Shown here piece by piece: positions 6,538 to 57,767 of a stretch of 64,000 nucleotides of DNA. The stretch spans positions 116,433 through 180,432 of the forward strand of contig JAWBTQ010000002.1 of assembly GCA_038841535.1 (NCBI GenBank), read 5' to 3'. Made by a program: the position numbers and the translations under genes. The stretch comes from Sulfolobales archaeon (GTDB taxonomy: Archaea; Thermoproteota; Thermoprotei_A; Sulfolobales; NBVN01). Numbering within the stretch: position 1 is the stretch's first letter; each line of letters opens with the position of its first letter. Below the pieces are notes generated by a model. It was not told the origin of the DNA. It was given only the letters and a program-made list of their open reading frames with translations, and ran no database searches.

Positions 6538-6547
6538 GTTACGTAAT
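6538..6547. promoter_or_regulatory. Palindromic operator GTTACGTAAT upstream of TATA (TTTATTA 6554)
   Basis: Same motif at the same position in four promoters. Confidence 0.7.
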
Positions 6548-6591
6548 CTTCCCTTTATTAGCAGCCTGGTTTTCGCGATTACGGACGTGGC

Positions 6592-8751
6592 ATGGCGCAC
6601 ACGCATTCTCGGACTAGGGTTTACCCCCTAGGTTTATGGTATGGAGTCGGCAAAGTTACACCAGTCTTCGATGCGTCTAAAATCCGCGATGACCTGAGGA
6701 AGGTCAAGGATCTGGGTGTAGGCTTTGTTAGACTTTGGGTAAACTGGAGAGATATCGAGCCGAGACCGAGTGCGTACGCATTTGGAGAGTTGAAGGAGGC
6801 TATGGACGAGGCCGAGGAGATCGGGCTTTCCGTAGTAATCCAAGTCTACTTAGAGTTTGGACCAGATTGGCTTCCGAAACTCTACCCCGATGCCGTTTTT
6901 ATTTCTGAGTCCGACCTAAAGCTGTATCACCAAGGTAGCCCAGGAGTTTGCCTAGACCACCCCTCTGTGAGAAGGCATGCTGAGAGGTTTCTTGTGGAGC
7001 TAGCTGGGTTCGCAAAGAAGTACAGCAGCCTATATGCTTGGGACGTATGGAGCGAACCACAGATAGTCCAATGGGTGTTCAGGCTTGGGTTTCCTAAGTC
7101 AGTCTACTGCTACTGTGAGCACAGCGTGAAGAGGTTTAGGGAATGGCTTAAGGAGGTCTACGTAAGTATCGACGCGCTAAACGCGGCATGGCATAGGTCC
7201 TTCAATTCGTTTGAGGAGGTTCAGCCACCTAGGTTTGTAGTCCTTCACTATGCTAAGGAGAACATTGACTGGGTAGAGTTTAACGTCTGGAAGCTCAAGG
7301 AGGATCTGCGTTGGAGGGTCGAGACTATCAAGAAAGTCGACCGGGAGCATCTCGTAGCAAGTCACGCAGCTACGTCGTCAGTTCTATTGAACCCCCTATT
7401 TGGGCACCCAGACGACTGGGAAATGTCTAAAGTCGTAGACGTTTGGGGTACGTCTCTATACCCTAAGCACGCTCACAGAGTCCCTGATCCAGCTGTAGAT
7501 AGCTTCATTCTAACCTCAGTAAGGTCTTCTGCTGACGCATGGGGAAAGAGCTTTTGGATAGGGGAACTCCAGGGAGGCCAAGGAGTTGGGGGCCTAAAGA
7601 TAGCGGACGTAGTACACCCAGAAGACATTAACGTATGGTTCTGGCAGTCCGTAGCCCACGGCTCTAAGGGAGCCTTCGTATACCACTCCTATCCAATGAT
7701 GTGGGGTTACGAGTCTTCGGGATACGGTCTACTAGACCCCGCTGGCAATTTAACGAATAGAGCAAGGGCTTTAGCGTCTATATCAAACATAGTGAGAGAG
7801 TACGGAGACATGCTTGCAGAAGCTAGACCTTTGAAAGCTAAGTGCGCACTATTATATAATAAGCACTCGTACAGACTGCTGTGGGTTCTTCAGGAGGAGT
7901 CGGCAGCAGCATTCTCTAGGTCTCTCCTGGGTGTGTACAGAGTTCTATACAAGCATAACGTTCCTGTAGATGTGGTCTCCATAGAGCAGTTCATGAACGA
8001 CCCGAGTAGCTATGTGCTACTGATGGCTCCCTTCTCGATAGCTGTTTCCAAAGAATTCTCTGGTGCTCTAGAGAGGTTTGTATCGAGCGGAGGTGTGCTT
8101 TTGGCGGATGCTAGATTTGGGTGGTTCAAGGAGGACGGCTGGATAGACGGAGAGATACCGTGCTACAACCTCTCAAGAGTTCTCGGTGCAAGAGAGAAGT
8201 CCTGCAGAAGCTTAACTGAGTCGAAGGCTGTTATGAGGGTCGTGAACGAGGTAGTCCCAGGGCTCAAGTGTGGCGACATCGTGGGGATGTGGCACTATGC
8301 TGAAACCATGGAGTTATTAAGTGAGAACACTATCCCTGTAGCTGAAGTAGGTAGTGCAGAAACAGCTCTAACGATTAACAATTACGATAGGGGTTTCGCA
8401 CTGTGGGTTGGCACATCCATAGGGTTAGCCTATGAGAACATGCGTGACCTAGGCATAGAGAAGCTTATTAAGGGAGTTGTGGAGCTTGCTGGAATACGTC
8501 CACCCGCAATAGTGGATCCAGTAGGTGCTCTCGAAGTTAGAGTTCTTACTGTGGGAGGAGGAGGCGAGAGACTAGTGGTAATGATAAACCAAGGCTTAGA
8601 GGAGGTGAGAGCGAAAATAGCTTTCCCGGAGGACAAGTGGTTAGAGAAAATAAGAGACATAATAACGGGCAAGTCCTACGTGGTTAGAGGAGGTGAGCTC
8701 GAGCTGTCTGTGCCCCCTAGAGGTGTAATCGTTGGGTACTCAAGGCAGTAG
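6592..8751 (+). CDS. GH42-like glycoside hydrolase with trimerisation domain
   Basis: WRDIEP, acid/base WDVWSEP, CYC, LNAAW, nucleophile WIGELQGG, class-I GATase-like C-terminal domain. Confidence 0.8.
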   Translation: MAHTHSRTRVYPLGLWYGVGKVTPVFDASKIRDDLRKVKDLGVGFVRLWVNWRDIEPRPSAYAFGELKEAMDEAEEIGLSVVIQVYLEFGPDWLPKLYPDAVFISESDLKLYHQGSPGVCLDHPSVRRHAERFLVELAGFAKKYSSLYAWDVWSEPQIVQWVFRLGFPKSVYCYCEHSVKRFREWLKEVYVSIDALNAAWHRSFNSFEEVQPPRFVVLHYAKENIDWVEFNVWKLKEDLRWRVETIKKVDREHLVASHAATSSVLLNPLFGHPDDWEMSKVVDVWGTSLYPKHAHRVPDPAVDSFILTSVRSSADAWGKSFWIGELQGGQGVGGLKIADVVHPEDINVWFWQSVAHGSKGAFVYHSYPMMWGYESSGYGLLDPAGNLTNRARALASISNIVREYGDMLAEARPLKAKCALLYNKHSYRLLWVLQEESAAAFSRSLLGVYRVLYKHNVPVDVVSIEQFMNDPSSYVLLMAPFSIAVSKEFSGALERFVSSGGVLLADARFGWFKEDGWIDGEIPCYNLSRVLGAREKSCRSLTESKAVMRVVNEVVPGLKCGDIVGMWHYAETMELLSENTIPVAEVGSAETALTINNYDRGFALWVGTSIGLAYENMRDLGIEKLIKGVVELAGIRPPAIVDPVGALEVRVLTVGGGGERLVVMINQGLEEVRAKIAFPEDKWLEKIRDIITGKSYVVRGGELELSVPPRGVIVGYSRQ

Positions 8752-9538
8752 TGGAGCGAAAATCCGCGACTTGCCCCAGGAGTGGTACGAAAGAGTGCTC
8801 GGACTGCTCGACTACATCGCTAAAACCCAGCGCAAAAATATTGAGAAAGCAGCCGAAATCGTCGCAGACTCTATATTCAAGGGACATGTGTGTTTTCTGT
8901 TTGGGTCAGGTCATGCTGCTATACCAGTGATGGAGATTTTTCCTAGATATGGGTCGATGGTTGGGTTCGTGCCCATAGTAGACCTCCCTCTAATATCCTT
9001 CCTTAGGCTAGTGGGGGATATGGGCTATCCGCAGTTTGATTGCATAGAGAACTCGCCTGAGTATGGGCGCAGAATAGTTGAGAACTACGAGATTCACAGA
9101 GACGACTGCGCCATTGTCTTCTCTCATTCTGGTACTACGCCCGTCACCTTAGAGGTAGCACTACAGATTAAGAGCAGGGGTTCTAAAGTGATTGGGATAA
9201 CCTCGGTAGCTCATTCGTTGAGGGCTAGACCACGACATCCGTCTGGATTAAAGCTATTCGAGGTTGCTGATGTGGTTATAGATACAGGAGTACCACCGGG
9301 AGATGTTTCCATAGAGGTATTTAGCGGGGGAAAGCCTATCAAAGTAGGACCTCTCTCCACAATAGCGTTCGTGTTCGTAGCTAATTTTGTGCTCTTAAGC
9401 ACCTATGAGCAATTGCTCAAAGCCGGTTACGACCCTATAACGCTGCCAGTTAGAGGTTTCGACTCAGATGCCGACATCCTCATGAGGAAAGCCCTCAGTA
9501 AGTACAGAGAGCTATACTCTAAACACATCTCTAAGTAG
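8732..9538 (+). CDS. SIS-domain sugar-phosphate isomerase-like protein (UPF0309-type)
   Basis: FGSGHA, FSHSG, GITS, KLFEVADVVIDTGVPPGD, GPLST. Confidence 0.8.
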   Translation: MGTQGSSGAKIRDLPQEWYERVLGLLDYIAKTQRKNIEKAAEIVADSIFKGHVCFLFGSGHAAIPVMEIFPRYGSMVGFVPIVDLPLISFLRLVGDMGYPQFDCIENSPEYGRRIVENYEIHRDDCAIVFSHSGTTPVTLEVALQIKSRGSKVIGITSVAHSLRARPRHPSGLKLFEVADVVIDTGVPPGDVSIEVFSGGKPIKVGPLSTIAFVFVANFVLLSTYEQLLKAGYDPITLPVRGFDSDADILMRKALSKYRELYSKHISK

Positions 9539-9546
9539 GGGATGGA

Positions 9547-10503
9547 ATGGTGTTGCGCAACGTCGTATTGTCAATAGACGTTGGTGGAACTAAGATTGCG
9601 TACGCGTTTATCGACTCCGGAGGAGGAGTTCATGATTACGGTATCGTAAAAACTAGGAGAGCTGGGGGAAGGCAGGTTATCAACCAGCTCAGAGAGATCG
9701 TTAGATCCTGTCGCTACAAGAAGGTTGTTGGCGTGGGGGTGAGCGTGCCAGGCATAGTTAGAAACGGATCGGTTACCTGGGCACCTAACATTAGGGAATG
9801 GAGGGACGTCCATTTAGCCGATCTGATAAGCAGGGATATCCCCGAGGGAGGCCTAATAGAGGTCGTAGACGATAGGACGGCTAGCGCTCTGGGTGAGATG
9901 TGGCAGGGGGCGGCAAAGAGTCTATCAAATTTCATAGTGCTAGTCATAGGGACGGGAGTCGGTGCCGGCGTAGTTATTGACGGTAGGCCTGTCCATGGCT
10001 CAGCTGGTGTTTCGGGAGCTGTAGGTTGGTGGTTACTATCGCGAAGTCTTCCACATCGGAGTACCCGGAGAGGTTTTCTCGAAGAAGAGATAGGGGGATT
10101 AGCTCTCGATAGAATCGCCAGAAGGTACTCTTCATCAAGAACCTCAACAGGCTCTCCACTTCGCGAGCTATGCGAATTCGTCGATTCGACTTGCTTGTTT
10201 AGAGCTTACGACCTTGGGCACGATCTCGCAAAAAACACCCTAGAAAGGAAAGCAGTATTACTCGGGATCCTCATAGCTAACTTACTGAGCCTGCTTAACC
10301 CCGAGGCCGTTATACTAAGTGGTAGCGTCGGAGTTGAGCTAGGTAAAAGGTTTATGCCGCTCATCAGGAGAGTAGTTGAGGCAGTAGCGCAACCGTACGC
10401 CACCAAGAGCTACCGCTTAGAGGTATCAAGCCTAGGTCACTTGTCCTGCTTATACGGCTCTGCCTACTTCGTATTGAAAAGAATGGGGAGCATAGGTAAG
10501 TAA
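9547..10503 (+). CDS. ROK family sugar kinase (no HTH), probably amino-sugar kinase
   Basis: IDVGGTK, GVSVPG, DDRTASALGE, IGTGVGAG, LNPEAVILSG. Confidence 0.85.
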   Translation: MVLRNVVLSIDVGGTKIAYAFIDSGGGVHDYGIVKTRRAGGRQVINQLREIVRSCRYKKVVGVGVSVPGIVRNGSVTWAPNIREWRDVHLADLISRDIPEGGLIEVVDDRTASALGEMWQGAAKSLSNFIVLVIGTGVGAGVVIDGRPVHGSAGVSGAVGWWLLSRSLPHRSTRRGFLEEEIGGLALDRIARRYSSSRTSTGSPLRELCEFVDSTCLFRAYDLGHDLAKNTLERKAVLLGILIANLLSLLNPEAVILSGSVGVELGKRFMPLIRRVVEAVAQPYATKSYRLEVSSLGHLSCLYGSAYFVLKRMGSIGK

Positions 10504-10546
10504 TAAGACCACTTTTTTGTTCTGTTAGTTTCTAACTCGTGAGACT

Positions 10547-11761
10547 ATGCTGCTTGGAGTAGTTGAGGGGTTCTATGGGCCCGCCTGGGACTGGGTTGAG
10601 AGGATTAACATTATGGAGTTTCTGAGTAGGGTAGGTCTCAATGCCTACATATACGCACCTAAGTGGGATCCTCGTCATAGGGATTGGTGGAGGATTCCAT
10701 ACGAACCTGTCTTTGCTGATAGACTAAGCATGCTATTAGACTCGGCTTCTAGGTACGGAATCAGAGTTGTTTTCGCCCTAAGCCCGGGCTTAGACATGGA
10801 CTACTCGTCAGAGCACGATGTTAGATTGCTAGTAAAGAAGTTCTCTTGGGTTATGGAGCTGGGGGTTGAAGATTTAGCCGTGTTTTTAGACGATATCCCG
10901 CCGGTTCTTAGAGGAAAAGGGTTCAAGACTCTAGCAGAAGCTCAGTCTTCCTTAGTGAACAAGTTGCTTAGGGAGCTGAGACCTAAGTCGCTGGTGTTCT
11001 GCCCTACCTATTACCACAGTCTGCGGGAGGACTACATGAGAGAGATAGGCGATCTCGTTGATCCCGAGGTATACATAGTTTGGACTGGTATGTGGGTAGC
11101 CTCACACAAAATAGACGTAGGGGACTTAGAATCCGTGGCCAAGCTCTTAAAGAGAAAGCCGTTCATATGGGATAACTACCCAGTTAACGACTACTTCACC
11201 GTTTACGGAATTACGAGGCTACACCTAGGGCCCCTAAAGAACAGACCTAAAGAGTTCACCAAATATATCTCCGGCTACGCATCTAACCCCATGAATCAGT
11301 ATGAAGCATCTAAGATACCTCTATACACTATCGCAGAAGCCTTACTAAGTACGTCATACGACCCCGAAAAGAGTTTATCGGACGCTATAGACAGCATACT
11401 CAATAAGAACTCTAGGTACTGGTTTAAGAGGTTTGTGGAGTTTAACCGAGCTAACTTTATGGACTTAACGGAACGTACTATAACTAGAGAAAATGCTGAC
11501 GAGGTGATCGAGCTAGTCAGAGAACTTCGTGAATCTATAGGAAACAAGAAGTTGGTTAGAGAAGTTGACTCAGTGTTAAGCAAAATGGAGTCCATAGCCA
11601 GGTACTCTAAAAACGAGGTATCCTATCTAAGCTGGCGAGTTCAGACTGCAGGTGAGTACAGTCCCCCAATAACAGCTGAGAGAATGTTGAAGGAGGTGTT
11701 CGGAGTAGTAGCCCGACTCACTCCTTGGTACAGTAAGGCCTACGTAAAGCCCGAGGTGTAG
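10547..11761 (+). CDS. GH84 beta-N-acetylglucosaminidase (O-GlcNAcase family)
   Basis: GVVEGFYG, YIYAPKWDP.HR, ALSPG, catalytic DD (FLDDI), FCPTYY, WTG, WDNYPVNDY, NPMNQ. Confidence 0.92.
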   Translation: MLLGVVEGFYGPAWDWVERINIMEFLSRVGLNAYIYAPKWDPRHRDWWRIPYEPVFADRLSMLLDSASRYGIRVVFALSPGLDMDYSSEHDVRLLVKKFSWVMELGVEDLAVFLDDIPPVLRGKGFKTLAEAQSSLVNKLLRELRPKSLVFCPTYYHSLREDYMREIGDLVDPEVYIVWTGMWVASHKIDVGDLESVAKLLKRKPFIWDNYPVNDYFTVYGITRLHLGPLKNRPKEFTKYISGYASNPMNQYEASKIPLYTIAEALLSTSYDPEKSLSDAIDSILNKNSRYWFKRFVEFNRANFMDLTERTITRENADEVIELVRELRESIGNKKLVREVDSVLSKMESIARYSKNEVSYLSWRVQTAGEYSPPITAERMLKEVFGVVARLTPWYSKAYVKPEV

Positions 11762-11764
11762 AAA

Positions 11765-13048
11765 GTGATAATTAGGGCGTATAGGAGAGGTGATGAAGAG
11801 GAAGTCGTTGAGCTACTCAAGATGTGCTTTGATGACTTCAATAGGTGGGGTGTGTCAGCGGAGGACTGGCTTTCGTATGAGGAAGGAGACTACGGCTTTA
11901 AGATAGATAACGCTCTTGTTGCTGAAGTCAGTGGTAGATTGGTAGGACACCTTCACTTAGTGATACGGAATGCGTACATAGGTGAAGGTTCCTTTGATAT
12001 CTGCGGAATAGCTAATGTTTCAACTCACCCGGACTTCCGAGGTAGGGGTATAGCTACCGCCCTCGTGAAGAGAGCTATAGAGGTGTGTAGAGAAATGGGT
12101 TTACCTGTAGTTTCACTACTTACCGGCTATGGAGGTGAGGGGTATCGCGTATATAGGTCCGTGGGTTTTTCGAACACGGCTTTTCTGAGAGCATACGTAG
12201 GTGCTCGAGATAGTGTCGAAAAGTTTTTAGAGAGTTATGGGAAGATCAGGCTAGAAGTTGAAGAAATAGGCTACGGGAACATCGATGAAGTAGCTAAGCT
12301 TCACGATACGTTACGGAGGAAAGTAAATCTTGTCATATCGCGTCCCAGAGACTACTGGGTCAGCAAGGTACTGAAGAGATTCTTTTTCTATAGCTTCTTT
12401 TACGATCGCTCCGAGGAAGCTATAAAGCTACTCTTCAGAGACTCCTCCGGTCCGGTGGGTTATTCTCTGGCTTTTAGTGGGCAACGCGCCTCGAGGAACT
12501 ACTGGCAGAAAGATGCAGGAGTAGTACTTGAAGCTGTAGCTATCAACGAGAAATACTTGAAGAGCGTAATCTCCGAGACCCTAAGGCGACTACTCGATAG
12601 TGGGGCGAAGTTGTTCAGGCTCTACGTGCCACCATTATACAGGCCTATATTACGCTATAGCTTTGAGGAGTTCAAGGGGGGTTTACTAATGGACTACGTA
12701 ATCGACTTAAAGAAGCTTCTGAGCAGTATGAGGGATGAACTCTCGAGGAGAGCAGCTTCCGCAGAGCTTAGGGGCCCTATGGACATCAGCATAAGGAGTC
12801 CATATGGATGCGCAAATGTTAATGTAGTTGATTCTAATGTGGAGATAAGTAGTTCCTGTAAGTTCGAGAATGAAGTGGAGTTCACCAGAGATGGCATCGT
12901 TAAAACTATCTATGGAGTAAGCTCCATAGGCAAACTAGTAAATAAGGACCAGGTAATGAGAATAAACCTTAGCTCACAAGCTTTTAAAGCAGTAAATGCC
13001 CTCTTTCCGGCTAGACCAATATACATCCCAAGGATGGACCAGTGGTAG
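11765..13048 (+). CDS. Tandem-GNAT N-acetyltransferase (Eis/GlmA-like architecture)
   Basis: GIANVSTHPDFRGRGIA, YRSVGF; second degenerate GNAT domain and SCP2-like tail. Confidence 0.8.
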   Translation: MIIRAYRRGDEEEVVELLKMCFDDFNRWGVSAEDWLSYEEGDYGFKIDNALVAEVSGRLVGHLHLVIRNAYIGEGSFDICGIANVSTHPDFRGRGIATALVKRAIEVCREMGLPVVSLLTGYGGEGYRVYRSVGFSNTAFLRAYVGARDSVEKFLESYGKIRLEVEEIGYGNIDEVAKLHDTLRRKVNLVISRPRDYWVSKVLKRFFFYSFFYDRSEEAIKLLFRDSSGPVGYSLAFSGQRASRNYWQKDAGVVLEAVAINEKYLKSVISETLRRLLDSGAKLFRLYVPPLYRPILRYSFEEFKGGLLMDYVIDLKKLLSSMRDELSRRAASAELRGPMDISIRSPYGCANVNVVDSNVEISSSCKFENEVEFTRDGIVKTIYGVSSIGKLVNKDQVMRINLSSQAFKAVNALFPARPIYIPRMDQW

Positions 13049-13401: not shown

Positions 13402-13411
13402 GTTACGTAAC
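13402..13411. promoter_or_regulatory. Perfect palindrome GTTACGTAAC upstream of TATA (TTTAAAT 13419)
   Basis: Shared operator motif. Confidence 0.72.
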
Positions 13412-13447
13412 TCTGTGGTTTAAATGATTCTAGCGATCAACTCACGG

Positions 13448-15478
13448 GTGCTAACTACGCCTCTACAGAAGTGGGTGATTTATGTTATAGTTGTAGTAGT
13501 CATAGCTGCAGTTGCTGTCGGTATAGCAGCCCAGTTACTCCTTCCGCCACCAGCCGTTCAACCAACTCCCACACCTACCCCTACCGCAATTACCCCCGCA
13601 ACAACACCGACTCCCACAACACCTCCAACAGTGACACCTACGACTACTCCTTTACCTACAACACCGACTCCCACACCGACTCCTGGGGAGAAGGTAGTAT
13701 ACTTGTACGGTAGTTGGCCGCCCCCTGAGAACTATATTACTAACCCCCTGGTAGGTACCATAGGGATGCTTCACTACTATACCCACATGCCACTAGTGTT
13801 TCTAATACCCGCTGATAGAGCACCATTACCTGGGTTACTCGGTGAGTACCCTAAGCTCATTTCGCTCTTAGCTGATGCCTGGGTATTCAAAGAGTATCCA
13901 GGTTCGAATTTAACTATAGCGGAGGTAAAGCTTAAGAAAACTGGTTGGAGTGATGGTAATCCGCTAACAGCTGAGGACGTTTTTATTAGTATAGTGTACT
14001 ACGGATGCTTCTACAACTCATTTCCCGGCTACTATGAGGTAATTAATGAAACAGCTATAAGGAGGTACTGGAACGCTACGGGCATTAGATTCGAAACACT
14101 CACCTCGTGGATGTGGTCTTGGTACGGGATTTGGGCATCAAGAGAATACTACAAAGTGGAGCCATTGTGGCCGATCTGTATAGAGCAGTACAGGCTACTA
14201 AAGGAGCGCTACTACCTAACAACAGTGGGGAAGCCTGTACCTAAGGAATTAACGGATAGACTTACTCTGCTCAATAAGTGGTTCAGGGGGAACCTAACGG
14301 AGATAGCTAAGAAGGTCCCAGCATACCTAGCTAATGGACCCTTCTATCCAGCTAAGATCACAGAGTCCCACATTATTTGGGAGAAGAACCCGTACTTCTG
14401 GAACACTAAAGGTATGGCAATAGATAGATGGGTGATGCTAAGCACTCCTGAGACTGCAGTCATAATAGAGAACATCGGTCGCGGAGCCGTTACGTGGTCG
14501 ACGCTAACATCAATAGTGCCAGACATCGTTGACGCACTTAAAGCTATAAACAGAGACCTATTGGTGTACCCACTAACTCACTATCGCATGGTCGGCATAC
14601 TCTTCAATTTCCAGAGATACCCGATGAACGATACACACTTCCGTAGAGCGATCGCTTACCTTGTAAATAAAGACGCCATTTTCCAAACTCTTCCCTTCTA
14701 CGCTAAGGAGACCATACTAAACATAGGGCTACCGGAGGAGTTCTTGTGGAAATGGATCTCAAGCGACGACTTAAAGTACTTCACAAGGTACACCTACGAC
14801 CCCAAGAAGGCGGAAGAAGAACTGCTCGCCGGAGGCTTCAGAAAAGACCCTAGAACTGGTAAGTGGCTTCTACCGAACGGTACTCCCATATCCATTACCA
14901 TAACGATTACCTCTGATCCCATGTATGTAATACCAGCTGAAGCTATTGCCGGGATGCTTAACAGCTTCGGAATCACGACGCAGATAAGTGTTGTTCCATC
15001 AGCTGTTTGGACGACACTCGTTCGGACCTACGCTACTACCTACGCCGTAGAGAGAAATTACGACATAACCATCTGGATATCTAGCTTGATGTACGCTACT
15101 GCTCACCCGTACTGGACATGGTCCCACATACTCATGCTCGGATGGGGTGCTGGAGGAGCAATAGCTTTCCCGAACTGGTGGAACATACAGCATCCGTGGA
15201 AGAGCTGCACTAACGACGAAAACATATCTAGGTTGTTCACTATACTCTACAACAACCCTGGTACAGACGTCGAGAAGTGCGCCATTAAGGCGTTCGCATG
15301 GGTCGTCAACGAATATGTGCCTGTCTTACATTTGTACGAATATGGTGTCTGGGTATTCATGAACAGTAAGGACATCAAGGGATGGCCCCCGGAGGAAGAC
15401 CCGGTTTGGAGCGTAAGATTAATGGACGCTGGCTACTATCGAGCTCTCCTGCTACTCTCGATATATTACCTGCGTTAA
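13448..15478 (+). CDS. ABC transporter substrate-binding protein, family 5 (Dpp/Opp-type, likely oligosaccharide or muropeptide)
   Basis: N-terminal TM, Pro/Thr linker, WSDGNPLTAEDV, NGPF, FRRAIAYLVNK, YDPKKAEE; GTG 13448 preferred because ATG 13424 overlaps the TATA box. Confidence 0.85.
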   Translation: MLTTPLQKWVIYVIVVVVIAAVAVGIAAQLLLPPPAVQPTPTPTPTAITPATTPTPTTPPTVTPTTTPLPTTPTPTPTPGEKVVYLYGSWPPPENYITNPLVGTIGMLHYYTHMPLVFLIPADRAPLPGLLGEYPKLISLLADAWVFKEYPGSNLTIAEVKLKKTGWSDGNPLTAEDVFISIVYYGCFYNSFPGYYEVINETAIRRYWNATGIRFETLTSWMWSWYGIWASREYYKVEPLWPICIEQYRLLKERYYLTTVGKPVPKELTDRLTLLNKWFRGNLTEIAKKVPAYLANGPFYPAKITESHIIWEKNPYFWNTKGMAIDRWVMLSTPETAVIIENIGRGAVTWSTLTSIVPDIVDALKAINRDLLVYPLTHYRMVGILFNFQRYPMNDTHFRRAIAYLVNKDAIFQTLPFYAKETILNIGLPEEFLWKWISSDDLKYFTRYTYDPKKAEEELLAGGFRKDPRTGKWLLPNGTPISITITITSDPMYVIPAEAIAGMLNSFGITTQISVVPSAVWTTLVRTYATTYAVERNYDITIWISSLMYATAHPYWTWSHILMLGWGAGGAIAFPNWWNIQHPWKSCTNDENISRLFTILYNNPGTDVEKCAIKAFAWVVNEYVPVLHLYEYGVWVFMNSKDIKGWPPEEDPVWSVRLMDAGYYRALLLLSIYYLR

Positions 15479-15501
15479 GATCAGTCTACAGGCTGGTGTA
15501 A

Positions 15502-16530
15502 ATGGAGTTAACGGGAGTTTTTCCGTTCATTAAGTTACTCTCGAAGAGGGTTTTATATGCGATTTTAACAATTATGGTAGCCGTCTCGGTAACTTTCGTG
15601 GCTATAAGGTCTATGCCTGGAGATGTGCTTTACACGCTGGCAGTATCGCTAGCAGAAGAGCTGAGGATCTCCGTAGAGGAGGCCAAGAAGATAGTGTTCT
15701 ACATATACTATGGGATTGACGTCGAAGAACCGATCTACCTACAGTACCTTAAGTATGTCATTGGGTTACTGCAGGGGAACCTAGGGTACTCGACATACTT
15801 CAAAAGACCCGTTACTTACGTTGTAGCCAGGGCGCTAGGCTGGACAGCGTTTACTCTTTCCGTGGGGATCTCTCTGTCTTTCGCTATTGGGATACTGATA
15901 GGGATGCTGGCAGGTTTTAAGCGCGGAACTAAGTTTGACGCCATAGTATCTCTGACCTCGACAGTACTGTCGGCTATACCGGGATACGTAGTAGCGCTAC
16001 TACTGTACATCATGCTATCTGCGCGACTAGGACTCCTACCAGCAAGAGGAGCCTACTCACCGCACGTAGAACCGGGACTAAACCTAGCGTTTATGATCGA
16101 CGTACTCTACCACGCAGCTCTCCCAGTACTCACATACGTAGTGATAACTTTCTCTGGCTGGACGCTACTCATAAGATCGAACGTGGCGAAGATACTGGAG
16201 GAGGACTTTCTCAAGTACGCTGAGGCGCGGGGAATTAGCAGGAGGAGAATAGTGACTACCTACATAGGTAGAAACTCCATACTGCCAATAGTGCCTCTCC
16301 TGGCTATAAGAGTGGGGAGCATGATTGGCGGCTCTACCCTCATAGAAACGATCTTCGCGTATCCCGGTATGGGGTATTACCTATCTCTAGCTCTTAGCAT
16401 TAGAGATTACGGTCTTCTCCAGGGCATATACTTTATGATGATAGTCGCAACTATAGTTGCGGTAATAGTGGTCGAGTTCCTCACCCCGTTAATAGATCCA
16501 AGAGTTCGACGCGAGGTAGTAGCAACATGA
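15502..16530 (+). CDS. ABC permease (DppB/OppB-type)
   Basis: MPGD, GNLGYS, EAA loop AEARG, ETIFAYPGMG, IDPRVR. Confidence 0.92.
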   Translation: MELTGVFPFIKLLSKRVLYAILTIMVAVSVTFVAIRSMPGDVLYTLAVSLAEELRISVEEAKKIVFYIYYGIDVEEPIYLQYLKYVIGLLQGNLGYSTYFKRPVTYVVARALGWTAFTLSVGISLSFAIGILIGMLAGFKRGTKFDAIVSLTSTVLSAIPGYVVALLLYIMLSARLGLLPARGAYSPHVEPGLNLAFMIDVLYHAALPVLTYVVITFSGWTLLIRSNVAKILEEDFLKYAEARGISRRRIVTTYIGRNSILPIVPLLAIRVGSMIGGSTLIETIFAYPGMGYYLSLALSIRDYGLLQGIYFMMIVATIVAVIVVEFLTPLIDPRVRREVVAT

Positions 16531-17414
16531 CTTCCTACAGGAGTTCTAAGTCGAGACTTAAGCTCATATACTTAGACTTCGTGAGACCAGTAATCCTAAG
16601 CGGTAGAGGAGTCCTAGGTATCGCTATCATAGTCTCCATGATCTTTATGGCTACATTAGGGCCCGAGCTCATACCTCTAGATACGGGTGTTAAGCCGCAG
16701 ATGAAGTGGTGTCAGCCCTCTCTTGAGCATCCGCTAGGGTGCGACTACCTCGGCCGCGACCTGTTCTCACTGGTAGTTCACGGTTCGAGAGAGGTCTTCC
16801 TTATACCCTTCTGTGCTACTTTGATTGGTGTGGTCGTAGGGCTATCTATAGGTCTGTTAGCAGGTTATATTGGCGGGTTGGCTAGAAGAGCTCTAACCTC
16901 AGTAACTGACACGTGGTTAACAATACCGTCGTTTCCAGTAATATTTATATTAGCCTACGCTTTACCTAAGTCTCCGGTCTCCATAATACTTCTACTAACT
17001 CTCTTTAGCTGGCCCGGGCTAGCTAGAGCGGTAGCCGCTGAAGTATCCTCATTGAAGCGCAGAGACTACATCGAGGCGTGCGTTAACCTAGGCCTTGGGA
17101 GGGGCTACATACTGTTCAGAGAGATAGGACCTCACATACTCCCATTTGTAGCAATCAACTTCGCCTCGGTTTTCGTCGCAAACATGACGTCTCTAATAGG
17201 CATAGTCCTCCTCGGGGTAGCCCCACTGAACCCAACTAATTGGGGCTACTTACTAAACCAGATGATATTTACTTACAAGGGACTGCTCCTAGCTAATGCA
17301 TCAGTAGTGATAGTGTTGATGATACTCATGTTGGTTTTTATAAAGCTGGGTGTAGTGTTCTTTGCTCAATCCCTCGAAGAGGTCTTTAACCCAAGGTTGA
17401 GGAGGTATGAGTGA
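16527..17414 (+). CDS. ABC permease (DppC/OppC-type)
   Basis: HPLGCDYLGRD, WPGLARAV, FNPRLR. Confidence 0.92.
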   Translation: MTSYRSSKSRLKLIYLDFVRPVILSGRGVLGIAIIVSMIFMATLGPELIPLDTGVKPQMKWCQPSLEHPLGCDYLGRDLFSLVVHGSREVFLIPFCATLIGVVVGLSIGLLAGYIGGLARRALTSVTDTWLTIPSFPVIFILAYALPKSPVSIILLLTLFSWPGLARAVAAEVSSLKRRDYIEACVNLGLGRGYILFREIGPHILPFVAINFASVFVANMTSLIGIVLLGVAPLNPTNWGYLLNQMIFTYKGLLLANASVVIVLMILMLVFIKLGVVFFAQSLEEVFNPRLRRYE

Positions 17415-18414
17415 AAAACTCGATAAGAACCAGAAGCTGGTTATCCGTGACCTGAGAATGGAGTACCTAGTGAGAGAAGGGACCGTAAAAGCGGTAAACG
17501 GAGTCAACCTCACTATACCTGAGGGGAGGATTACCGCTATCGTGGGCGAGAGCGGCTCCGGGAAAACCTCTCTGGTTGAGACCTTTCTTAAAATTTTACC
17601 TAAAAACGCGAGAATAAGGTCCGGTAAGGCCCTTCTCAAGCTCTCCAACGGAACAGCTGTAGACCTGATAGAAGCGAGCGATAGCTTAATGAGAAAGCTA
17701 AGAGGGAGAGTCGTGGGATATATACCTCAAGGAGCGCAAAACTCTTTAAACCCTGTCTTAACCATCGAGCAGCACTTCCTCGAAACCCTCAGGGAGCATG
17801 GGACTCACTCTAAGGAGGCTATCGAGGAGAGAGTTCGCGCAATGCTTTCTCTCGTTAGGCTAGACCCTGAGGTCGTCTTGAAGAAGTACCCTCATGAGCT
17901 AAGTGGAGGCATGAAGCAGAGAGTTGTGATAGCATTGACTATGTTACTCCAACCGGAACTAGTAGTTCTAGACGAGCCAACTTCGGCTTTAGACATCTTC
18001 TCTCAAAGGGTTCTGCTGAACATACTCTACAAGATCCAGTCCACTTATAAGAATACCATGGTTTTGATCACACACGATATCCCGATAGTATCAGAGCTAA
18101 CCGATAGGGTGGCGGTTCTCTACGCAGGAGCTATAGTAGAGTCCGCAGATACGTACGAGGTATTCAAGGAGCCTATACACCCCTATACCTCTATGCTTAT
18201 ATCTGCCATACCTTCGGTAGTAGACGTCTACCTAAAGAGGGTGCCTAAGCCGGTACCTGGAGAGCCCCCCAGTCTTCTAAATCCACCACCAGGCTGCAGA
18301 TTCCATCCTAGATGTCCTCACGCTTTTGAGAAATGCAGGCTTAAGGAGCCTCCTACGGTAGAAGTGCACTCAGGTCACTTCGTTAGTTGCTGGCTGTACG
18401 CCGAGGGTGTGTAG
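17407..18414 (+). CDS. ABC ATPase (DppD/OppD-type)
   Basis: GESGSGKT, YPHELSGGMKQR, LDEPT, GCRFHPRC. Confidence 0.95.
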   Translation: MSEKLDKNQKLVIRDLRMEYLVREGTVKAVNGVNLTIPEGRITAIVGESGSGKTSLVETFLKILPKNARIRSGKALLKLSNGTAVDLIEASDSLMRKLRGRVVGYIPQGAQNSLNPVLTIEQHFLETLREHGTHSKEAIEERVRAMLSLVRLDPEVVLKKYPHELSGGMKQRVVIALTMLLQPELVVLDEPTSALDIFSQRVLLNILYKIQSTYKNTMVLITHDIPIVSELTDRVAVLYAGAIVESADTYEVFKEPIHPYTSMLISAIPSVVDVYLKRVPKPVPGEPPSLLNPPPGCRFHPRCPHAFEKCRLKEPPTVEVHSGHFVSCWLYAEGV

Positions 18415-18416
18415 AG

Positions 18417-19451
18417 ATGAAGAGGGTTGTCGCAGTAGAGAAGGTAAGTAAGACCTACTCCAGAGGGTTATTTAAGAAGAGGCTTATCAGTGCAGTGCAG
18501 AGCGCTTCTCTCGAGGTATCTAGCGGTGAGTTAATTAGTATCGTTGGTGAGAGCGGCTCCGGAAAGACTACTCTGGGAAAGTTGATGACTGGCTTAGTCC
18601 TTCCTAGTAGCGGGAGGCTAATCTGGAGAGACGTGGACGTAATTAAGAACGGAAGAATAGTCAATAGAGAGTTCTACTCTTCGAATAGACATAGATACGT
18701 ATACGTCCATCAAGACCCGTATAGTGCTCTAAATCCTTCTAAGAACGTATGGGACACTCTCAACCCGGTGATCAGTAAGTACAAGAAGCACTTAGGAACA
18801 TCGGATAAGTATAAAACAGTGATAGAGCTCCTAGAGGAGGTAGGACTAGTTCCAGCAGATTACTTCATCGATAAGTATCCTCACCACCTCTCTGGAGGTA
18901 TGAGGCAGAGACTTGCTCTAGCGAGAGCTCTGGCAGCTGATCCTCACTTCATAGTGGCAGACGAAATAGTGAGCATGGTAGACCCGTCAATAAGGATATC
19001 GCTAGTGAACCTCCTCAAGGATATAGTGAAGGCGCGCAATATCTCGGTAGTGTTCATATCTCACGACCTCGGAATATCTATTTATGCCGCTGAAAACAAC
19101 TTCATGTACGTGATGCTTAACGGGGTGGTCGTAGAGTACGGTCCTGCCTACGAGATAGCTTACTCCCCCGAACATCCGTATACAAGAGCCCTAATATCTA
19201 ATACATCCGTTCCACTACCCTCACGAGAGAAGCGTGTGAGAGAGCTAGATGGCGTTGCGGTCGAAGACAGTAAACCCAGGCCAAACACACTGTGCCCATT
19301 TGCTTCTCTATGCCCGTTTGTTGATTCAGAGTGCTCTTCTTTTGAGCTTGGGTTTTACTTAAAAGCAGGTGCTAAGCACTTCTCAGCGTGTTTAAAGACT
19401 GGAAAGCTACCTAAGTGGAAGCCCAGCTGGCTCCAAACCCTATCTGGGTAG
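18417..19451 (+). CDS. ABC ATPase (DppF/OppF-type)
   Basis: GESGSGKTT, YPHHLSGGMRQR, HPYT, C-terminal Cys cluster. Confidence 0.93.
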   Translation: MKRVVAVEKVSKTYSRGLFKKRLISAVQSASLEVSSGELISIVGESGSGKTTLGKLMTGLVLPSSGRLIWRDVDVIKNGRIVNREFYSSNRHRYVYVHQDPYSALNPSKNVWDTLNPVISKYKKHLGTSDKYKTVIELLEEVGLVPADYFIDKYPHHLSGGMRQRLALARALAADPHFIVADEIVSMVDPSIRISLVNLLKDIVKARNISVVFISHDLGISIYAAENNFMYVMLNGVVVEYGPAYEIAYSPEHPYTRALISNTSVPLPSREKRVRELDGVAVEDSKPRPNTLCPFASLCPFVDSECSSFELGFYLKAGAKHFSACLKTGKLPKWKPSWLQTLSG

Positions 19452-19657: not shown

Positions 19658-19661
19658 AGTC

Positions 19662-19671
19662 GTTACGTAAT
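19662..19671. promoter_or_regulatory. Palindromic operator GTTACGTAAT upstream of TATA (TTTAAAC 19680)
   Basis: Shared operator motif. Confidence 0.7.
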
Positions 19672-19703
19672 CCTTTCCCTTTAAACTTCTAACCCCAAAA
19701 AGT

Positions 19704-22373
19704 ATGGGGGAAATATTGAGAACTATTTATATCGTAATCCTGACTATAGTAGTGGTCGCGGCTATAGTCACCCCCACAGTTTTCCGGGTTCTTAAGCCTG
19801 AGACGTCGGAAACATCTACACCTATAGAAACTACGGCAGTAGCTTTCACTCTAGTACAGCTACCGCTTAGAAAAAGACCATTCGTGTGGACCTGGATCTA
19901 CAGCACGAAATCCAGCGAAGTCGCCGAGCTCCTGAGCAGATTCGGAGGTCGCGCGATAGATGTGGTCTCACCTGATTGGTACTATCTTACCGAGGACTTG
20001 AGTCTAGGTTTATACTACGAGAGAGGGGCGGAAGACCCAGGTTTTGTGAAACTTAGTAAAGACTCAGGAATCTTGATAGTCCCGATGGTTGTTTCTTCTA
20101 AAGGAGATAGAGTAAAGAACCTAATAACGAGTCGGGAAGCTATCGAGAGGTTCTCCAGGCAACTCGTAGAGACAGCAGCTAGAATGGGATACTCCGGCTT
20201 TAATATAGACTTCGAGGTAAGCCTCCCACTCTACTCTAGAGAGTTCGCTGAATTCATAGACTATCTTGCTAAGAGGCTTCATGAGGCTGGACTTATATTA
20301 ACTGTAGCAGTGCCCGCCAAGAGGGCTGAGATCCGTAGCGACTATCTAATGACTTACGACTACCAACTTCTAGCAAAAACAGACGCTGACTACATTATGA
20401 TCATGGCATACGACTACTACGAGATAGTGGGACCTAAGCCGGTCGCCCCCATGCCTTGGGTAGAGGACTGTATTGAGTACTCCCTAAGGTTCTTCCCTAG
20501 AGAAAAACTCGTTCTCGGCGTCCCTAATTACGGAAAAGTTTGGGACGACAAGGGCAAGTTAGTGAAGTGGTTACTGCACCAGGATTATCTGTCCATGGTA
20601 TCCCAGGGAGAGCGCTTTGTAGTAGACCTAAGCTCGAGAGAGCTTATGGCTAAAACAGCCGAGGGAGTAGCATACTACGTTGATGGAGAGATGGCGTACT
20701 ACCGAGCAAAGCTCGCACTCTCCCATCGCTTAGCCGGTGTAGCAATATGGAGACTCGACGGGGGAGACCTCGGCTTATGGGAGCTTCTCGAGGATTTCCG
20801 TCTCTCGCATGCGGGACCCCCCGACTACCCTCTAGCTAAGTGGATAGAGGCCTACTCAGGTAATTATCAAAAGTCAAACAGAACGGAAGTCAACTGGATA
20901 GTGGTCCACGTCACCGAGGGCTCGACTCAGTCTGCTATTAACTGGTTCCTAGACCCACGATCCGGAGTTTCAGCCCATTATATAATCTCGTTGGGAGGAT
21001 CGGTCTATCAAATGGTTATGGAGAAAGACATCGCTTGGCATGCGGGTAACAAGCAGTACAACCTACTGTCTATAGGTATAGAGCATGAGGGCTTCGTTAA
21101 GGCAAGGATGTTTACGGAATCTCAATACAGATCGTCCGCCCGCTTAATAGCATATCTAGCCTATAAGTATGGCATATCATTAGATCACGTAGTCGGCATA
21201 GCTCCTCCGGATCCCGCGGAAAGTAAAGGGATAATAGGGCACGACCAAGTTCCTGACCCGAGGAATCAGACGATAGGTGGAGGAATCTCCCACCACACTG
21301 ATCCTGGACCATACTGGGATTGGCGTTTATACATGGAGCTCGCGAGGAAGTACTACGAAGCCTTAGTAAGTGGAAATTATGAGAAGGCCTTTATCGCAGT
21401 GTGGTGGGGTGTTTACTCGGATAAGTGGAGCATGAATAGAGATGTCTGGCTTAAGCAGGTTAATGAAGCTCTAGCTAAGCTCAAGAGAGCTGGGGTTGAC
21501 GCTGTGTTCTTTCTAGTTAAGGACCCCTGGGGCTACGTATATTACAATAGCTCCTACGCACCTCTGAACCCGAAGTATTCTTGGGACGTTCTCGGCGATG
21601 TAGTGAAGGTCGCTAAAAAATATGGAATAGAGGTTTACGTATATATAAACGCTCTATCCGAGGGAGAGACCAGTCCCGGGTTCTATTTACAGCAGAACCC
21701 CCACTTCGCTCTCTATGATGAGTACGGAAACATGCTCGGTTGGGTAGACCCCTACTGTGAAGAATACGTGCAGAGGCTCCTCGACATAGTAGCTGAGATA
21801 TTGACTAAGTACCCCGAGGTCAGAGGGGTACAACTAGATAGAATAAGAGCTCCTCAGAGCAACGTCATCGGAAAATGCTCTTCGGAGGGTTTCTGGAAGC
21901 AATATGGTAAGAACCCCAAAGACGATATACGACTCTACCAGAAGTTTCTAGTTGACGGTATAACTAGCATAGTCAAGAGAGTTTCTGCTTTAGCTAAGAG
22001 CGCTAGGCCCGGCATTCACGTGTCTGCCGCAGTATTCCCGAGTCCAACCGCCGTTCATACCGTACTCCAGGATTGGATTTATTGGGTTAACGAGGGTGTG
22101 GTCGATGCTGTCGCAACAATGACCTACACAATAGACTTTACAACGTTTAAGAGTTACGTGACATCACAGCTCGGAACTATTAAAGACCCTAGTAAGCTCC
22201 TTATAGGTGTAGGAGCGTGGCAGCTATTAGACGAAATGCTGGTATCCCAACTGAGTTATGTGATAGAGGAGCTTAATCTCAAGGGAGCTGTTCTGTTTAA
22301 CTTAGACAGCCTAATAGACAAGAACCTGGCCGAAACCCTTACCAAGTTCAGACTTACATACTATTGCCGATAG
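19704..22373 (+). CDS. Membrane-anchored trimodular hydrolase: GH18 + N-acetylmuramoyl-L-alanine amidase (Amidase_2) + GHL10/DUF187
   Basis: N-terminal TM; GH18 GFNIDFE, IMAYD, LGVPNYG, GVAIWRL; amidase IVVHVTEG, SAHY, AWHAG, SIGIEHEG, IIGHDQ, HTDPG; GHL10 VFFLVK, GVQLDRIR, SAAVFP, QDWIYW. Confidence 0.88.
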   Translation: MGEILRTIYIVILTIVVVAAIVTPTVFRVLKPETSETSTPIETTAVAFTLVQLPLRKRPFVWTWIYSTKSSEVAELLSRFGGRAIDVVSPDWYYLTEDLSLGLYYERGAEDPGFVKLSKDSGILIVPMVVSSKGDRVKNLITSREAIERFSRQLVETAARMGYSGFNIDFEVSLPLYSREFAEFIDYLAKRLHEAGLILTVAVPAKRAEIRSDYLMTYDYQLLAKTDADYIMIMAYDYYEIVGPKPVAPMPWVEDCIEYSLRFFPREKLVLGVPNYGKVWDDKGKLVKWLLHQDYLSMVSQGERFVVDLSSRELMAKTAEGVAYYVDGEMAYYRAKLALSHRLAGVAIWRLDGGDLGLWELLEDFRLSHAGPPDYPLAKWIEAYSGNYQKSNRTEVNWIVVHVTEGSTQSAINWFLDPRSGVSAHYIISLGGSVYQMVMEKDIAWHAGNKQYNLLSIGIEHEGFVKARMFTESQYRSSARLIAYLAYKYGISLDHVVGIAPPDPAESKGIIGHDQVPDPRNQTIGGGISHHTDPGPYWDWRLYMELARKYYEALVSGNYEKAFIAVWWGVYSDKWSMNRDVWLKQVNEALAKLKRAGVDAVFFLVKDPWGYVYYNSSYAPLNPKYSWDVLGDVVKVAKKYGIEVYVYINALSEGETSPGFYLQQNPHFALYDEYGNMLGWVDPYCEEYVQRLLDIVAEILTKYPEVRGVQLDRIRAPQSNVIGKCSSEGFWKQYGKNPKDDIRLYQKFLVDGITSIVKRVSALAKSARPGIHVSAAVFPSPTAVHTVLQDWIYWVNEGVVDAVATMTYTIDFTTFKSYVTSQLGTIKDPSKLLIGVGAWQLLDEMLVSQLSYVIEELNLKGAVLFNLDSLIDKNLAETLTKFRLTYYCR

Positions 22374-22441
22374 AGCTTAAACTTAATACAGTACAACGAG
22401 TTCTATTTCGGTTATTTGCTGCGGATTTAAGTGGCCTAATC

Positions 22442-55143: not shown

Positions 55144-55150
55144 TGTCGTC

Positions 55151-56341: not shown

Positions 56342-56371
56342 CCGCTCCTATGTTAGAGAGTGAAGTCTAGA

Positions 56372-56379
56372 GTACGTAA
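56372..56379. promoter_or_regulatory. Degenerate operator GTACGTAA upstream of the serine hydrolase promoter
   Basis: One mismatch to TTACGTAA; AT-rich TATA-like sequence about 7 nt downstream. Confidence 0.4.
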
Positions 56380-56407
56380 GTAAATCTTAACTAATTATAC
56401 TGAGTAC

Positions 56408-57553: not shown

Positions 57554-57708
57554 CTTATTCATAACTTGGGAAGGGTTTTCGCGTAAGCTAACTCCTTCTG
57601 AGTTCTGCTTAGTAGGTATTCGTAGCTCAAAAATCTCGGAGAAGCAGTAGGCACTAAGGCACGCAGTATTGTTACTAAGGTTGAACGGTTTGACTGCGTT
57701 AAGCAGTA

Positions 57709-57718
57709 ATTACGTAAC
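57709..57718. promoter_or_regulatory. Palindromic operator ATTACGTAAC upstream of TATA-like TTTATG/CTTAAA
   Basis: Shared operator motif. Confidence 0.65.
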
Positions 57719-57767
57719 ACCGAGTTCTTTATGCTTAAACTCACTATTATTTGGAGAGGTATGCGGT

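Follow-up and report, generated by a model that had tools for sequence, protein, structure and literature searches.

A rare membrane-anchored GH18-Amidase_2-GHL10 hydrolase of a Sulfolobales archaeon, probable front end of bacterial peptidoglycan use

Introduction

Are bacteria, to an archaeon, competitors or a resource? Archaeal enzymes able to cleave bacterial walls have been known only since 2025, from a paper that reads them as weapons and leaves this question open (PMC12352652). A locus in a Sulfolobales archaeon raises it again. The stretch analysed here (the window: 64,000 nucleotides, positions 116,433 to 180,432 of contig JAWBTQ010000002.1, assembly GCA_038841535.1; window coordinates are used throughout) encodes at 19704..22373 a membrane-anchored protein that the original prediction, made from the sequence without database searches, had described as a triple hydrolase joining GH18, Amidase_2 and GHL10 domains. 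To our knowledge, this archaeal order makes no murein. What, then, would such a protein cut, and to what end?

We propose that the protein is probably the extracellular front end of an archaeal pathway for eating bacterial peptidoglycan (murein), and the one enzyme of that pathway exposed at the cell surface. That this archaeon feeds on bacterial cell walls is suggested by a promoter motif that the hydrolase gene shares with the genes of an importer and of sugar breakdown. The host genome (G000) comprises 1.56 Mb in 40 contigs, with a completeness of 83.8% and a contamination of 0.77%; it was compared with its congeners G201 and G208, with the genomes of the order in a co-occurrence survey (325 genomes) and with a phylum sample (401 genomes).

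Results

Domain architecture of the hydrolase

The hydrolase gene (19704..22373, + strand; product P0001) is an uninterrupted open reading frame for 889 amino acids, encoding in order an N-terminal membrane helix, a disordered linker, and the GH18, Amidase_2 and GHL10 domains. All three domains score above their Pfam gathering thresholds and have their key residues, and the AlphaFold2 model (mean predicted local distance difference test score, pLDDT, 92.7; predicted template-modelling score 0.75; 44-row alignment) folds them confidently into three compact units, in keeping with the architecture first described. The domain limits given by the model and the VIA alignment lie within about 10-20 nucleotides (nt) of those estimated beforehand, and the motifs quoted then (NIDFE, MAYD in IMIMAYDYY, WRL in AIWRLD, IVVHVT, GIEHEG, IIGHD and HTDPG) are all in the translation. 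Additional Pfam matches in the protein are GHL6, above its cut-off (36.4 against 35), and GH85, below it (E 0.0022).

The N-terminal anchor (19707..19787, + strand) is modelled as a helix of residues 2-28, with a Kyte-Doolittle maximum of 2.74 over 19 residues, and leads into a disordered stalk rich in Thr, Ser, Pro and Glu (19788..19871, + strand; approximately residues 29-56; pLDDT below 50 at residues 24-52). Hydrophobic N-termini are conserved among the family members, and stalk length differs across the family. The sequence places the hydrolase on the outer face of the membrane, where it is predicted to be held by the helix and the flexible stalk. A Pfam search of the protein with E values up to 0.1 found no wall-binding domain (LysM, PG_binding, SH3, SLH and the like).

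The Amidase_2 domain (20820..21371, + strand; approximately residues 373-556) is of the zinc N-acetylmuramoyl-L-alanine amidase type and matches PF01510 at residues 394-536 (E 5.7e-30; 104.8 bits against a cut-off of 26; profile positions 3-131 of 131). The four residues on which its activity should depend, H402, E460, H513 and D533, had been noted as intact and are invariant in all ten full-length family members. H402, E460 and D533 align with their counterparts in AmpDh2 (4bj4), and the domain aligns with AmpD (1j3g) as well; for H513, where an insertion upsets the pairwise alignment, the assignment comes from the GIIGHD motif. We take the four to be zinc ligands and catalytic Glu, as in the work on AmpD. 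The domain is thus a putative N-acetylmuramic acid (MurNAc)-L-Ala amidase.

The GHL10 domain (21384..22358, + strand; residues 561-885) is a TIM barrel of the Cwp19/DigH type, with a match to PF02638 at residues 584-816 (E 8e-18; 65.0 bits against a cut-off of 27.9). Its fold (model residues 561-884) superposes on the functional region of Cwp19 (5oq3) with a Z score of 34.4 and a root-mean-square deviation (rmsd) of 2.5 Å over 309 residues. A profile of its subfamily matches Cwp19 at E 3.7e-30; a single-sequence search of the PDB with the domain gave nothing significant, the best match being a fucosidase (E 0.0033). The putative active site described for Cwp19 consists of Trp36, Arg132, Asp195/196, Tyr297, Gly328 and Phe367 (PMC5765458). 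W567, D712, Y808, G835 and F865 align with Trp36, the conserved Asp, Tyr297, Gly328 and Phe367, D712 falling on Asp195 in an ungapped hidden Markov model (HMM) alignment and on Asp196 when guided by the canonical LD[YF]xRYP, so that its register is ambiguous. The domain is best described as a putative cleaver of the glycan backbone, lytic or hydrolytic.

Cwp19 is a GHL10 (Pfam02638) enzyme reported to lyse Micrococcus cells and to degrade peptidoglycan to 1,6-anhydro-muropeptides, giving reducing-end products as well at unsubstituted MurNAc; it is a lytic transglycosylase, and the one GHL10 member with a product analysis (PMC6016235). DigH, by comparison, is described as a hydrolase that acts specifically on denuded glycan (PMC12288456). 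Lytic transglycosylase action of the Cwp19 kind fits the AnmK of the host genome, described below, better than plain hydrolysis does.

The GH18 domain (19872..20810, + strand; residues 57-369) matches PF00704 at residues 140-352 (E 4.7e-18; 66.4 bits against a gathering cut-off of 29.6) and folds as a (beta/alpha)8 barrel whose closest structures include 5jh8 (Z 35.6, 302 residues, rmsd 2.3) and the SleL structure 4s3k (Z 33.8, 301 residues, rmsd 2.6). Its motif GFNIDFE (N167, D169, E171) retains the catalytic Asp-x-Glu at the end of strand 4, D169 and E171 aligning with nvDFE and tiDFE of 5jh8 and YdhD. The classical chitinase motif DxxDxDxE is incomplete, the sequence reading S-G-F-N-I-D-F-E with Ser and Asn at the first two Asp positions. 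The original prediction had placed the domain nearer to SleL, YaaH and YdhD than to the chitinases, and sequence comparison agrees: 5jh8, YdhD (3cz8), 4q6t, 4wiw, SI-CLP and YaaH/SleL match at E 2e-20 to 7e-9, and the true chitinases follow at E 9e-6 or worse. The SleL/YaaH enzymes of the spore cortex act as N-acetylglucosaminidases.

Rarity of the fusion and conservation of its parts

The three-module fusion is rare. Of the 7999 candidates scored from a collection of 5.8 billion proteins, 168 reached E <= 1e-3, and among these candidates all three domains occur in nine clusters besides the query (P0002-P0010, 44-91% identity), with Amidase_2 and GHL10 only in four more. An exhaustive search of representatives returned 13372 proteins at E <= 1e-3, two of the 150 best covering the full length. 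Across the order, the full-length fusion is found in 4 of 325 genomes, namely the host, two congeners and G013.

Parts of the protein occur alone or in pairs. Membrane-anchored proteins of approximately 400 amino acids with GH18 only, 42-60% identical and always keeping NIDFE, are present in seven genomes. In the phylum sample, Amidase_2 occurs in 16 genomes and GHL10 above its cut-off in 42; the two are fused or at most 500 bp apart in 6 of the 16 Amidase_2-positive genomes. GH18 is fused in G013 in a degenerate form (NIDLK), yet the same genome has a separate, intact GH18. Judged from these sequences, GH18 is a mobile, dispensable module and Amidase_2 with GHL10 the conserved core, because GH18 is degenerate in the fusion of G013 and in P0009 and stand-alone intact copies exist elsewhere. 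The claim of three catalytic modules accordingly stands for the protein of the host, in which all three look competent, and does not extend to the family, since the catalytic Asp or Glu of GH18 is lost in two of ten full-length members.

At two stand-alone loci, in G012 (L040 3520-5112) and G014 (L003 1436-2980), the GH18 homologue lies divergent from an NAD-dependent GH4 glycosidase and near a family III CoA-transferase, a neighbourhood that differs from that of the window.

A promoter element shared by three units

From 6592 to 22373 every gene is on the + strand, in three units: a cytoplasmic catabolic unit (6538..13048), an Opp/Dpp-type ATP-binding cassette (ABC) importer (13402..19451) and the hydrolase. 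Each unit is preceded by GTTACGTAA(T/C), 6-8 nt and a TATA-like box. The element of the hydrolase (19662..19685, + strand) consists of GTTACGTAAT, 8 nt and a TTTAAA box that ends 18 nt 5' of the ATG; the catabolic unit starts with GTTACGTAAT and TTTATT (6538-6559), and the importer has its own GTTACGTAAC with TTTAAA (13402-13424). The pattern GTTACGTAAYN{6,12}TTTAWW has three matches in the 1.56 Mb genome, all of them 5' of these three units, and its reversed control has none. Only this composite with the TATA-like box is specific; we rejected the bare palindrome TTACGTAA (57 in the genome against approximately 31 expected from base composition) and GTTACGTAA with one mismatch (17 matches in the window against 14.3 expected).

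The arrangement is conserved in part. Gene order is colinear in G208 and, without GH84, in G201, and in both genomes the orthologues of the binding protein and the hydrolase are preceded by GTTACGTAAC with TATAAT or TTAAAA; the fusion gene of G013 adjoins ATPases of the same type. The element is absent upstream of the GH42 gene of G201 and of the G013 fusion gene.

The catabolic unit is led by a GH42-like protein of 719 amino acids (6592-8751), which is kept in G201, and continues with a UPF0309/NagS-family SIS_2 protein, hereafter SISa (PRK02947; 8732-9538), a ROK kinase (9547-10503), a GH84 beta-N-acetylglucosaminidase (10547-11761) and an Eis-like GNAT of 427 amino acids (11765-13048). The importer comprises a membrane-anchored SBP_bac_5 binding protein (13424-15478), two permeases (15502-17414) and two ATPases (17407-19451), all on the + strand. 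N-terminal hydrophobic anchors are found in the binding protein and the hydrolase only; the GH42-like, SIS, ROK, GH84, GNAT, NagA, PBP4B-like and NamZ proteins have none.

Three details of these units deserve mention in their own right. The listed ATG of the binding protein (13424) overlaps the TATA-like TTTAAA (13419-13424), so that the true start is probably downstream, for example at GTG 13448, on a leaderless or short-leader mRNA. A beta-galactosidase would have no obvious place in murein use, and the GH42-like protein may have another specificity, of which the Thermococcus exo-glucosaminidase is an example. GNATs recur near such genes, as the Eis-like protein here and as small proteins by AnmK and SIS in G006 and G005 (L085 2726-3217, L087 7472-7957).

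A murein-sugar gene set in the host and its relatives

A second amino-sugar cluster (54196..58511, + strand) encodes an AbrB/MazE-domain protein (54196-55143), NagA (55151-56341; TIGR00221, 316 bits against an equivalog cut-off of 225.65), a PBP4B-like serine hydrolase (56408-57553; NF002968 at 2e-52) and a second UPF0309 SIS_2 protein, SISb (probable ATG at 57768, to 58511). A near-copy of the shared element, ATTACGTAAC (57709-57718) with TTTATG, lies before this probable ATG. The PBP4B-like protein shares 29% identity with E. coli YfeW (E 4e-50) and retains its SxxK motif; in E. coli K-12, yfeW directly follows murQ-murP. SISa and SISb score 219 and 248 bits with the UPF0309/NagS family HMM (cut-off 135) and are paralogues of 37% identity; SISb matches 9eol at E 3.5e-38. 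Both keep H53 and D179 of NagS, their GHS and GD motifs being aligned, and a change of either residue is reported to abolish the function of Streptomyces NagS. SISa and SISb are candidates for the etherase step, the deaminase step or both, because no canonical MurQ or NagB was found in the host genome.

Elsewhere in the genome, AnmK (PF03702) is divided between contigs C28 and C6, whose ends overlap (242 bits for positions 2-279 and 68.7 bits for 258-364), and NamZ is represented by NamZ_N (187.8 bits) and NamZ_C (157.8 bits). Related combinations are found in clusters of sister genera, as AnmK-PBP4B-SIS-NagA in G322, SIS-GH84-BadF-type kinase-PBP4B-AnmK with NagA nearby in G237, and PBP4B-AbrB protein-AnmK with SBP_bac_5, permeases and NamZ in G012. 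In G009, a GH18-only homologue lies beside GH84 and AnmK, and in G201 NamZ is a divergent neighbour of the operon.

Order-wide, AnmK occurs in 23 of 325 genomes and NamZ above its cut-off in 16. A strong homologue of the hydrolase or its GH18 is present in ten genomes, all of them among the 23 with AnmK (seven also with NamZ), and in none of the 302 AnmK-negative genomes; these counts are descriptive, without a statistical test, and overstate independence because the genomes are kin. For families f9 and f13, the strong homologue and AnmK coincide in a single genome.

On contig C27 (locus L093, 1666-4082, - strand), NamZ (2925-4082) is followed after 18 bp by a pyridoxal phosphate (PLP)-dependent decarboxylase of the Orn/DAP/Arg family (1666-2907), and a pyroglutamyl peptidase adjoins the pair. 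The decarboxylase might salvage diaminopimelate from stem peptides.

Host assignment and other features of the window

The locus belongs to an archaeal genome, as had been proposed. The closest relatives are titled Sulfolobales or Desulfurococcaceae archaeon, synteny is found in three further archaeal genomes, and the window codes for an EF-2-type elongation factor, an XPD-type helicase and family-B polymerases. The G+C content of the hydrolase gene (0.47-0.48) is the same as that of the remaining window. A tRNA scan of the window found none, and Rfam gave zero matches in it, as in 22300-22800 queried separately.

Near-identical DNA occurs in runs labelled hot springs metagenome, with at least half of the sampled words in 11 of the 17 runs listed; ten of these 11, all except X11, carry a flag marking them as possible sources of the window. 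Contigs of an RNA-labelled Logan run (X13) are 90-99% alike over 25 of the 30 bins of 6000-23500, importer and hydrolase included, with 6584-8335 uncovered. Such a library may contain DNA, and contigs cannot show expression level or strand; we take them as no more than a weak indication of transcription of the locus in a related strain.

The intergenic region 3' of the hydrolase holds at 22447-22730 a copy of a dispersed repeat of approximately 100-285 bp, which looks like a miniature inverted-repeat transposable element because more than 40 dispersed copies, 68-93% identical, lie on many contigs of the genome. There, run depth is approximately fourfold higher, many contigs end at 22447 and 22500, and Rfam has no match. 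An HTH protein is encoded just beyond the repeat, at 22733-23452. At 1787-4141, a gene like that of 2,4-diaminopentanoate dehydrogenase (NF040740, 198 bits, under the cut-off) adjoins a class-III aminotransferase or aminomutase, which suggests diamino-acid catabolism near the locus. On the - strand, 58828-60747 encodes 639 amino acids that match family-B DNA polymerase only weakly (E 6.9e-19), and an exonuclease domain not at all; it may be a degenerate PolB paralogue.

Discussion

A proposed route from wall to sugar phosphate

The Amidase_2 and GHL10 modules belong to families with peptidoglycan-acting members, AmpD and AmpDh2 in the one and Cwp19 and DigH in the other. By homology, the zinc amidase would remove stem peptides from MurNAc and so denude the glycan, the GHL10 barrel would cut the denuded bonds between MurNAc and N-acetylglucosamine (GlcNAc), and the SleL-like GH18 would cut GlcNAc-MurNAc bonds. 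By analogy with Cwp19, GHL10 may act partly as a lytic transglycosylase and leave 1,6-anhydro-MurNAc ends, which would explain the need for AnmK. Context supplies the remaining steps: the fragments would be imported by the co-regulated Opp/Dpp-type importer; in the cytoplasm, GH84 and NamZ would take off terminal GlcNAc and MurNAc, and the ROK kinase and AnmK would yield sugar 6-phosphates; a UPF0309/NagS-family SIS protein may stand in for the absent MurQ etherase; NagA would deacetylate GlcNAc-6-phosphate (GlcNAc-6P); and peptides may be handled by the PBP4B-like protein and M20 peptidases.

The original prediction had pictured a processing line within one polypeptide, in which the amidase strips peptides, GHL10 cuts the denuded strands and GH18 trims them. 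The recurrence of the Amidase_2-GHL10 pair in Thermoproteota fits an amidase that strips and a GHL10 that then cuts, while the role of GH18 and the order of the steps are conjectural. It had also left the purpose as either nutritional or antibacterial, and had named the protein a candidate thermostable lysin. Of the two purposes, nutrition is favoured by the operator shared with importer and catabolic genes, by the co-occurrence with AnmK, NamZ and NagA, and by the lack of a wall-binding domain, and killing is less favoured.

Several observations weigh against a role in feeding on murein. Every activity in the pathway is assigned by homology or context. GHL10 belongs to a divergent subfamily (65 bits) and lacks the four-residue loop in which Arg132 of Cwp19 sits, the register of D712 is uncertain as described, and one GHL10 protein is reported to cleave starch, an alpha-glucan (PMC9967864). 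The GH18 motif reads NIVLE in P0009 and NIDLK in P0010/G013, so that catalytic residues are lost in 2 of 10 full-length members. AnmK and NamZ lie on contigs other than that of the hydrolase locus, and the regions upstream of AnmK, of the AbrB-NagA unit and of the PBP4B-like gene gave no match to the shared element. In the 83.8%-complete host genome, no canonical MurQ was found (the best NF003915 match has 38.8 bits against a cut-off of 168), nor were NagB and a PIG-L deacetylase; SISb has no significant similarity to E. coli MurQ (E 0.14). Distant homologues of NagS did not use GlcNAc-6P (PMC12680351). The genomes being kin, their co-occurrence counts overstate independence, and in the host genus the fusion is found in 3 of 10 genomes and AnmK in 7 of 10. 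The cytoplasmic pathway therefore exists without the fusion, and some relatives probably live on soluble muropeptides alone. Finally, GH18, GH84, the ROK kinase, NagA and the GH42-like protein suit chitin or other GlcNAc oligomers equally well.

A weapon, a chitinase or a tool for the cell's own surface

The alternative that survives best is that the hydrolase is an antibacterial weapon, lysing neighbouring bacteria on contact for competition or predation while the importer mops up the debris. Peptidoglycan hydrolases of a haloarchaeon are reported to kill bacteria (PMC12352652), an amidase joined to two glycan-cleaving modules would attack both kinds of bond in the wall, and predation is compatible with feeding. 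We nevertheless consider this unlikely: the protein has no cell-wall-binding domain and is anchored in the membrane, not released; it shares its operator with importer and catabolic genes; and none of the genes seen within 10 kb of it is for immunity, a toxin or secretion. Many hot-spring bacteria, moreover, have outer membranes or S-layers, which would shield their walls from an anchored enzyme.

Chitin, or another GlcNAc polymer, would be the substrate if GH18 were the working, chitinase-like module and the amidase and GHL10 acted on other glycoconjugates or only bound them. GH18, GH84, the ROK kinase, NagA, the GH42-like protein and the Opp/Dpp-type importer do resemble archaeal chitin clusters such as that of Thermococcus kodakarensis, and the top structural match of GH18, 5jh8, is labelled a chitinase. 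The chances of this explanation are nonetheless slim. Of DxxDxDxE only S-x-x-N-x-D-x-E is left, and the closest relatives that have been characterised, SleL and YaaH, are cortex-lytic enzymes. The amidase and GHL10 are the most conserved parts of the protein and GH18 the decaying one, and chitin use has no place for AnmK, NamZ or the PBP4B-like protein.

It is very improbable that the protein remodels the cell's own surface or matrix (N-glycans, S-layer glycans or exopolysaccharide), or is a fusion without selected function that drift has preserved, for although the GH18 family includes endo-beta-N-acetylglucosaminidases, a weak GH85 match lies below its cut-off (E 0.0022) and one GHL10 member acts, as reported in the work cited above, on alpha-glucan, an intact zinc muramoyl-alanine amidase would, as far as we know, have no self substrate in an order making no murein, the amidase and GHL10 residues are strongly conserved across 44-91% identity, and a patchy accessory gene in 4 of 325 genomes misfits a housekeeping role in the envelope.

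We therefore return to the hydrolase as the front end of murein use. Whether the pathway is complete is a further and more doubtful matter: that a shredder, with GHL10 as lytic transglycosylase and GH18 as glucosaminidase, feeds the import of anhydro-muropeptides, that AnmK, NamZ and GH84 then lead to MurNAc-6-phosphate, and that a UPF0309 SIS etherase acts on it, is a scheme by which a lineage of hot-spring Thermoproteota would draw part of its living from bacterial walls, and one that we put forward tentatively, as possible rather than likely. Its weakest link is the replacement of MurQ by a UPF0309 SIS protein; in favour of this replacement, both SIS paralogues keep H53 and D179 of NagS, which is described as MurQ-related.

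Implications

The locus, which combines a single anchored enzyme and a single importer with a shared operator and a defined group of cytoplasmic enzymes, makes the resource question testable. If our interpretation is right, bacterial wall material, a large pool of necromass, would join the substrates of hyperthermophilic archaea, bacterial-derived domains would have been rebuilt into a new architecture, MurQ would have undergone non-orthologous replacement, and heat-stable peptidoglycan-cutting enzymes would be at hand for analytical or lytic use. Were the complete pathway to hold as well, it would be the first archaeal pathway of murein catabolism, would give the widespread UPF0309 family a function, and would answer the question with which we began: the resource.

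Comparison with known systems

Each module has well-studied relatives from which the hydrolase departs. Cwp19 of Clostridioides difficile (5oq2/5oq3) matches GHL10 in fold and profile, and both proteins are attached to the surface; the two differ in sequence (18% identity), in the missing Arg132 loop and in LDRIR in place of FDDYF. Cwp19 serves a bacterium as an autolysin and is attached through CWB2 repeats, whereas the GHL10 described here is fused to two other catalytic modules in a host without murein. DigH (YddW) of Escherichia coli, likened here by family and description, belongs to the same PF02638, which the E. coli control genome matches, and a family member is named 'lipoprotein YddW' by JGI. 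The logic of DigH, which follows the division amidases, agrees with the fusion or adjacency of Amidase_2 and GHL10; unlike the fused hydrolase, DigH is a stand-alone lipoprotein of the periplasm, described as working on the septum of its own cell (PMC12288456).

SleL/YaaH and YdhD of Bacillus are the best characterised relatives of residues 57-369 in sequence and structure, with the reduced x-I-D-F-E motif common to both sides. These Bacillus proteins carry LysM repeats and target their own spore cortex, whereas the GH18 of the hydrolase has no LysM and is anchored by a membrane helix. AmpD and AmpDh2 share PF01510 and the conserved His, Glu, His and Asp positions with the amidase domain, which differs by approximately 20 residues inserted before the second His. 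Its best-matching named sequences (41-48% identity) are multidomain bacterial amidases, not AmpD, and such matches suggest a bacterial origin of the domains.

Among archaeal systems, the closest comparison is with the wall hydrolases of Strock et al. 2025, described as secreted killers and defined by the combination of one or more catalytic with one or more cell-wall-binding Pfam domains (PMC12352652). They resemble the hydrolase in being archaeal proteins with bacterial-type wall-cleaving domains, and PF01510 is in their catalytic list (S10 Table, PMC12352652). The hydrolase falls outside that definition, having the catalytic PF01510 and no binding domain; PF02638 and PF00704 do not appear in the domain list of that paper, and among 12 of its 13 supplementary files 'Thermoproteota' and 'Sulfolobales' are named only in a phage-host table and the review file (PMC12352652). 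Where those proteins are secreted, this one is anchored and tied to import and catabolism.

The cytoplasmic side resembles the bacterial catabolism of MurNAc and anhydro-MurNAc (AnmK-MurQ-NagA, murQ-murP-yfeW of E. coli, NamZ of B. subtilis), with which the host shares AnmK, NamZ, NagA and a YfeW-like protein. It differs in that the archaeon has no wall to recycle, in the UPF0309 SIS proteins that take the position of MurQ and NagB, neither of which was found, in the clusters, and in uptake by an ABC importer, not by a phosphotransferase system or AmpG. Among the papers listed by searches of PMC and bioRxiv, none relevant to archaeal AnmK, to archaeal MurNAc catabolism or to the three-module architecture was found. 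Bacteria that feed on wall fragments from outside are already known, among them muropeptide scavengers such as Fidelibacter multiformis (PMC11652737). Each domain family, wall-fragment feeding in bacteria and archaeal wall hydrolases were thus known already; what is new is the three-module architecture, its co-regulation with an importer, and its setting in an archaeal murein-sugar gene set that lacks MurQ.

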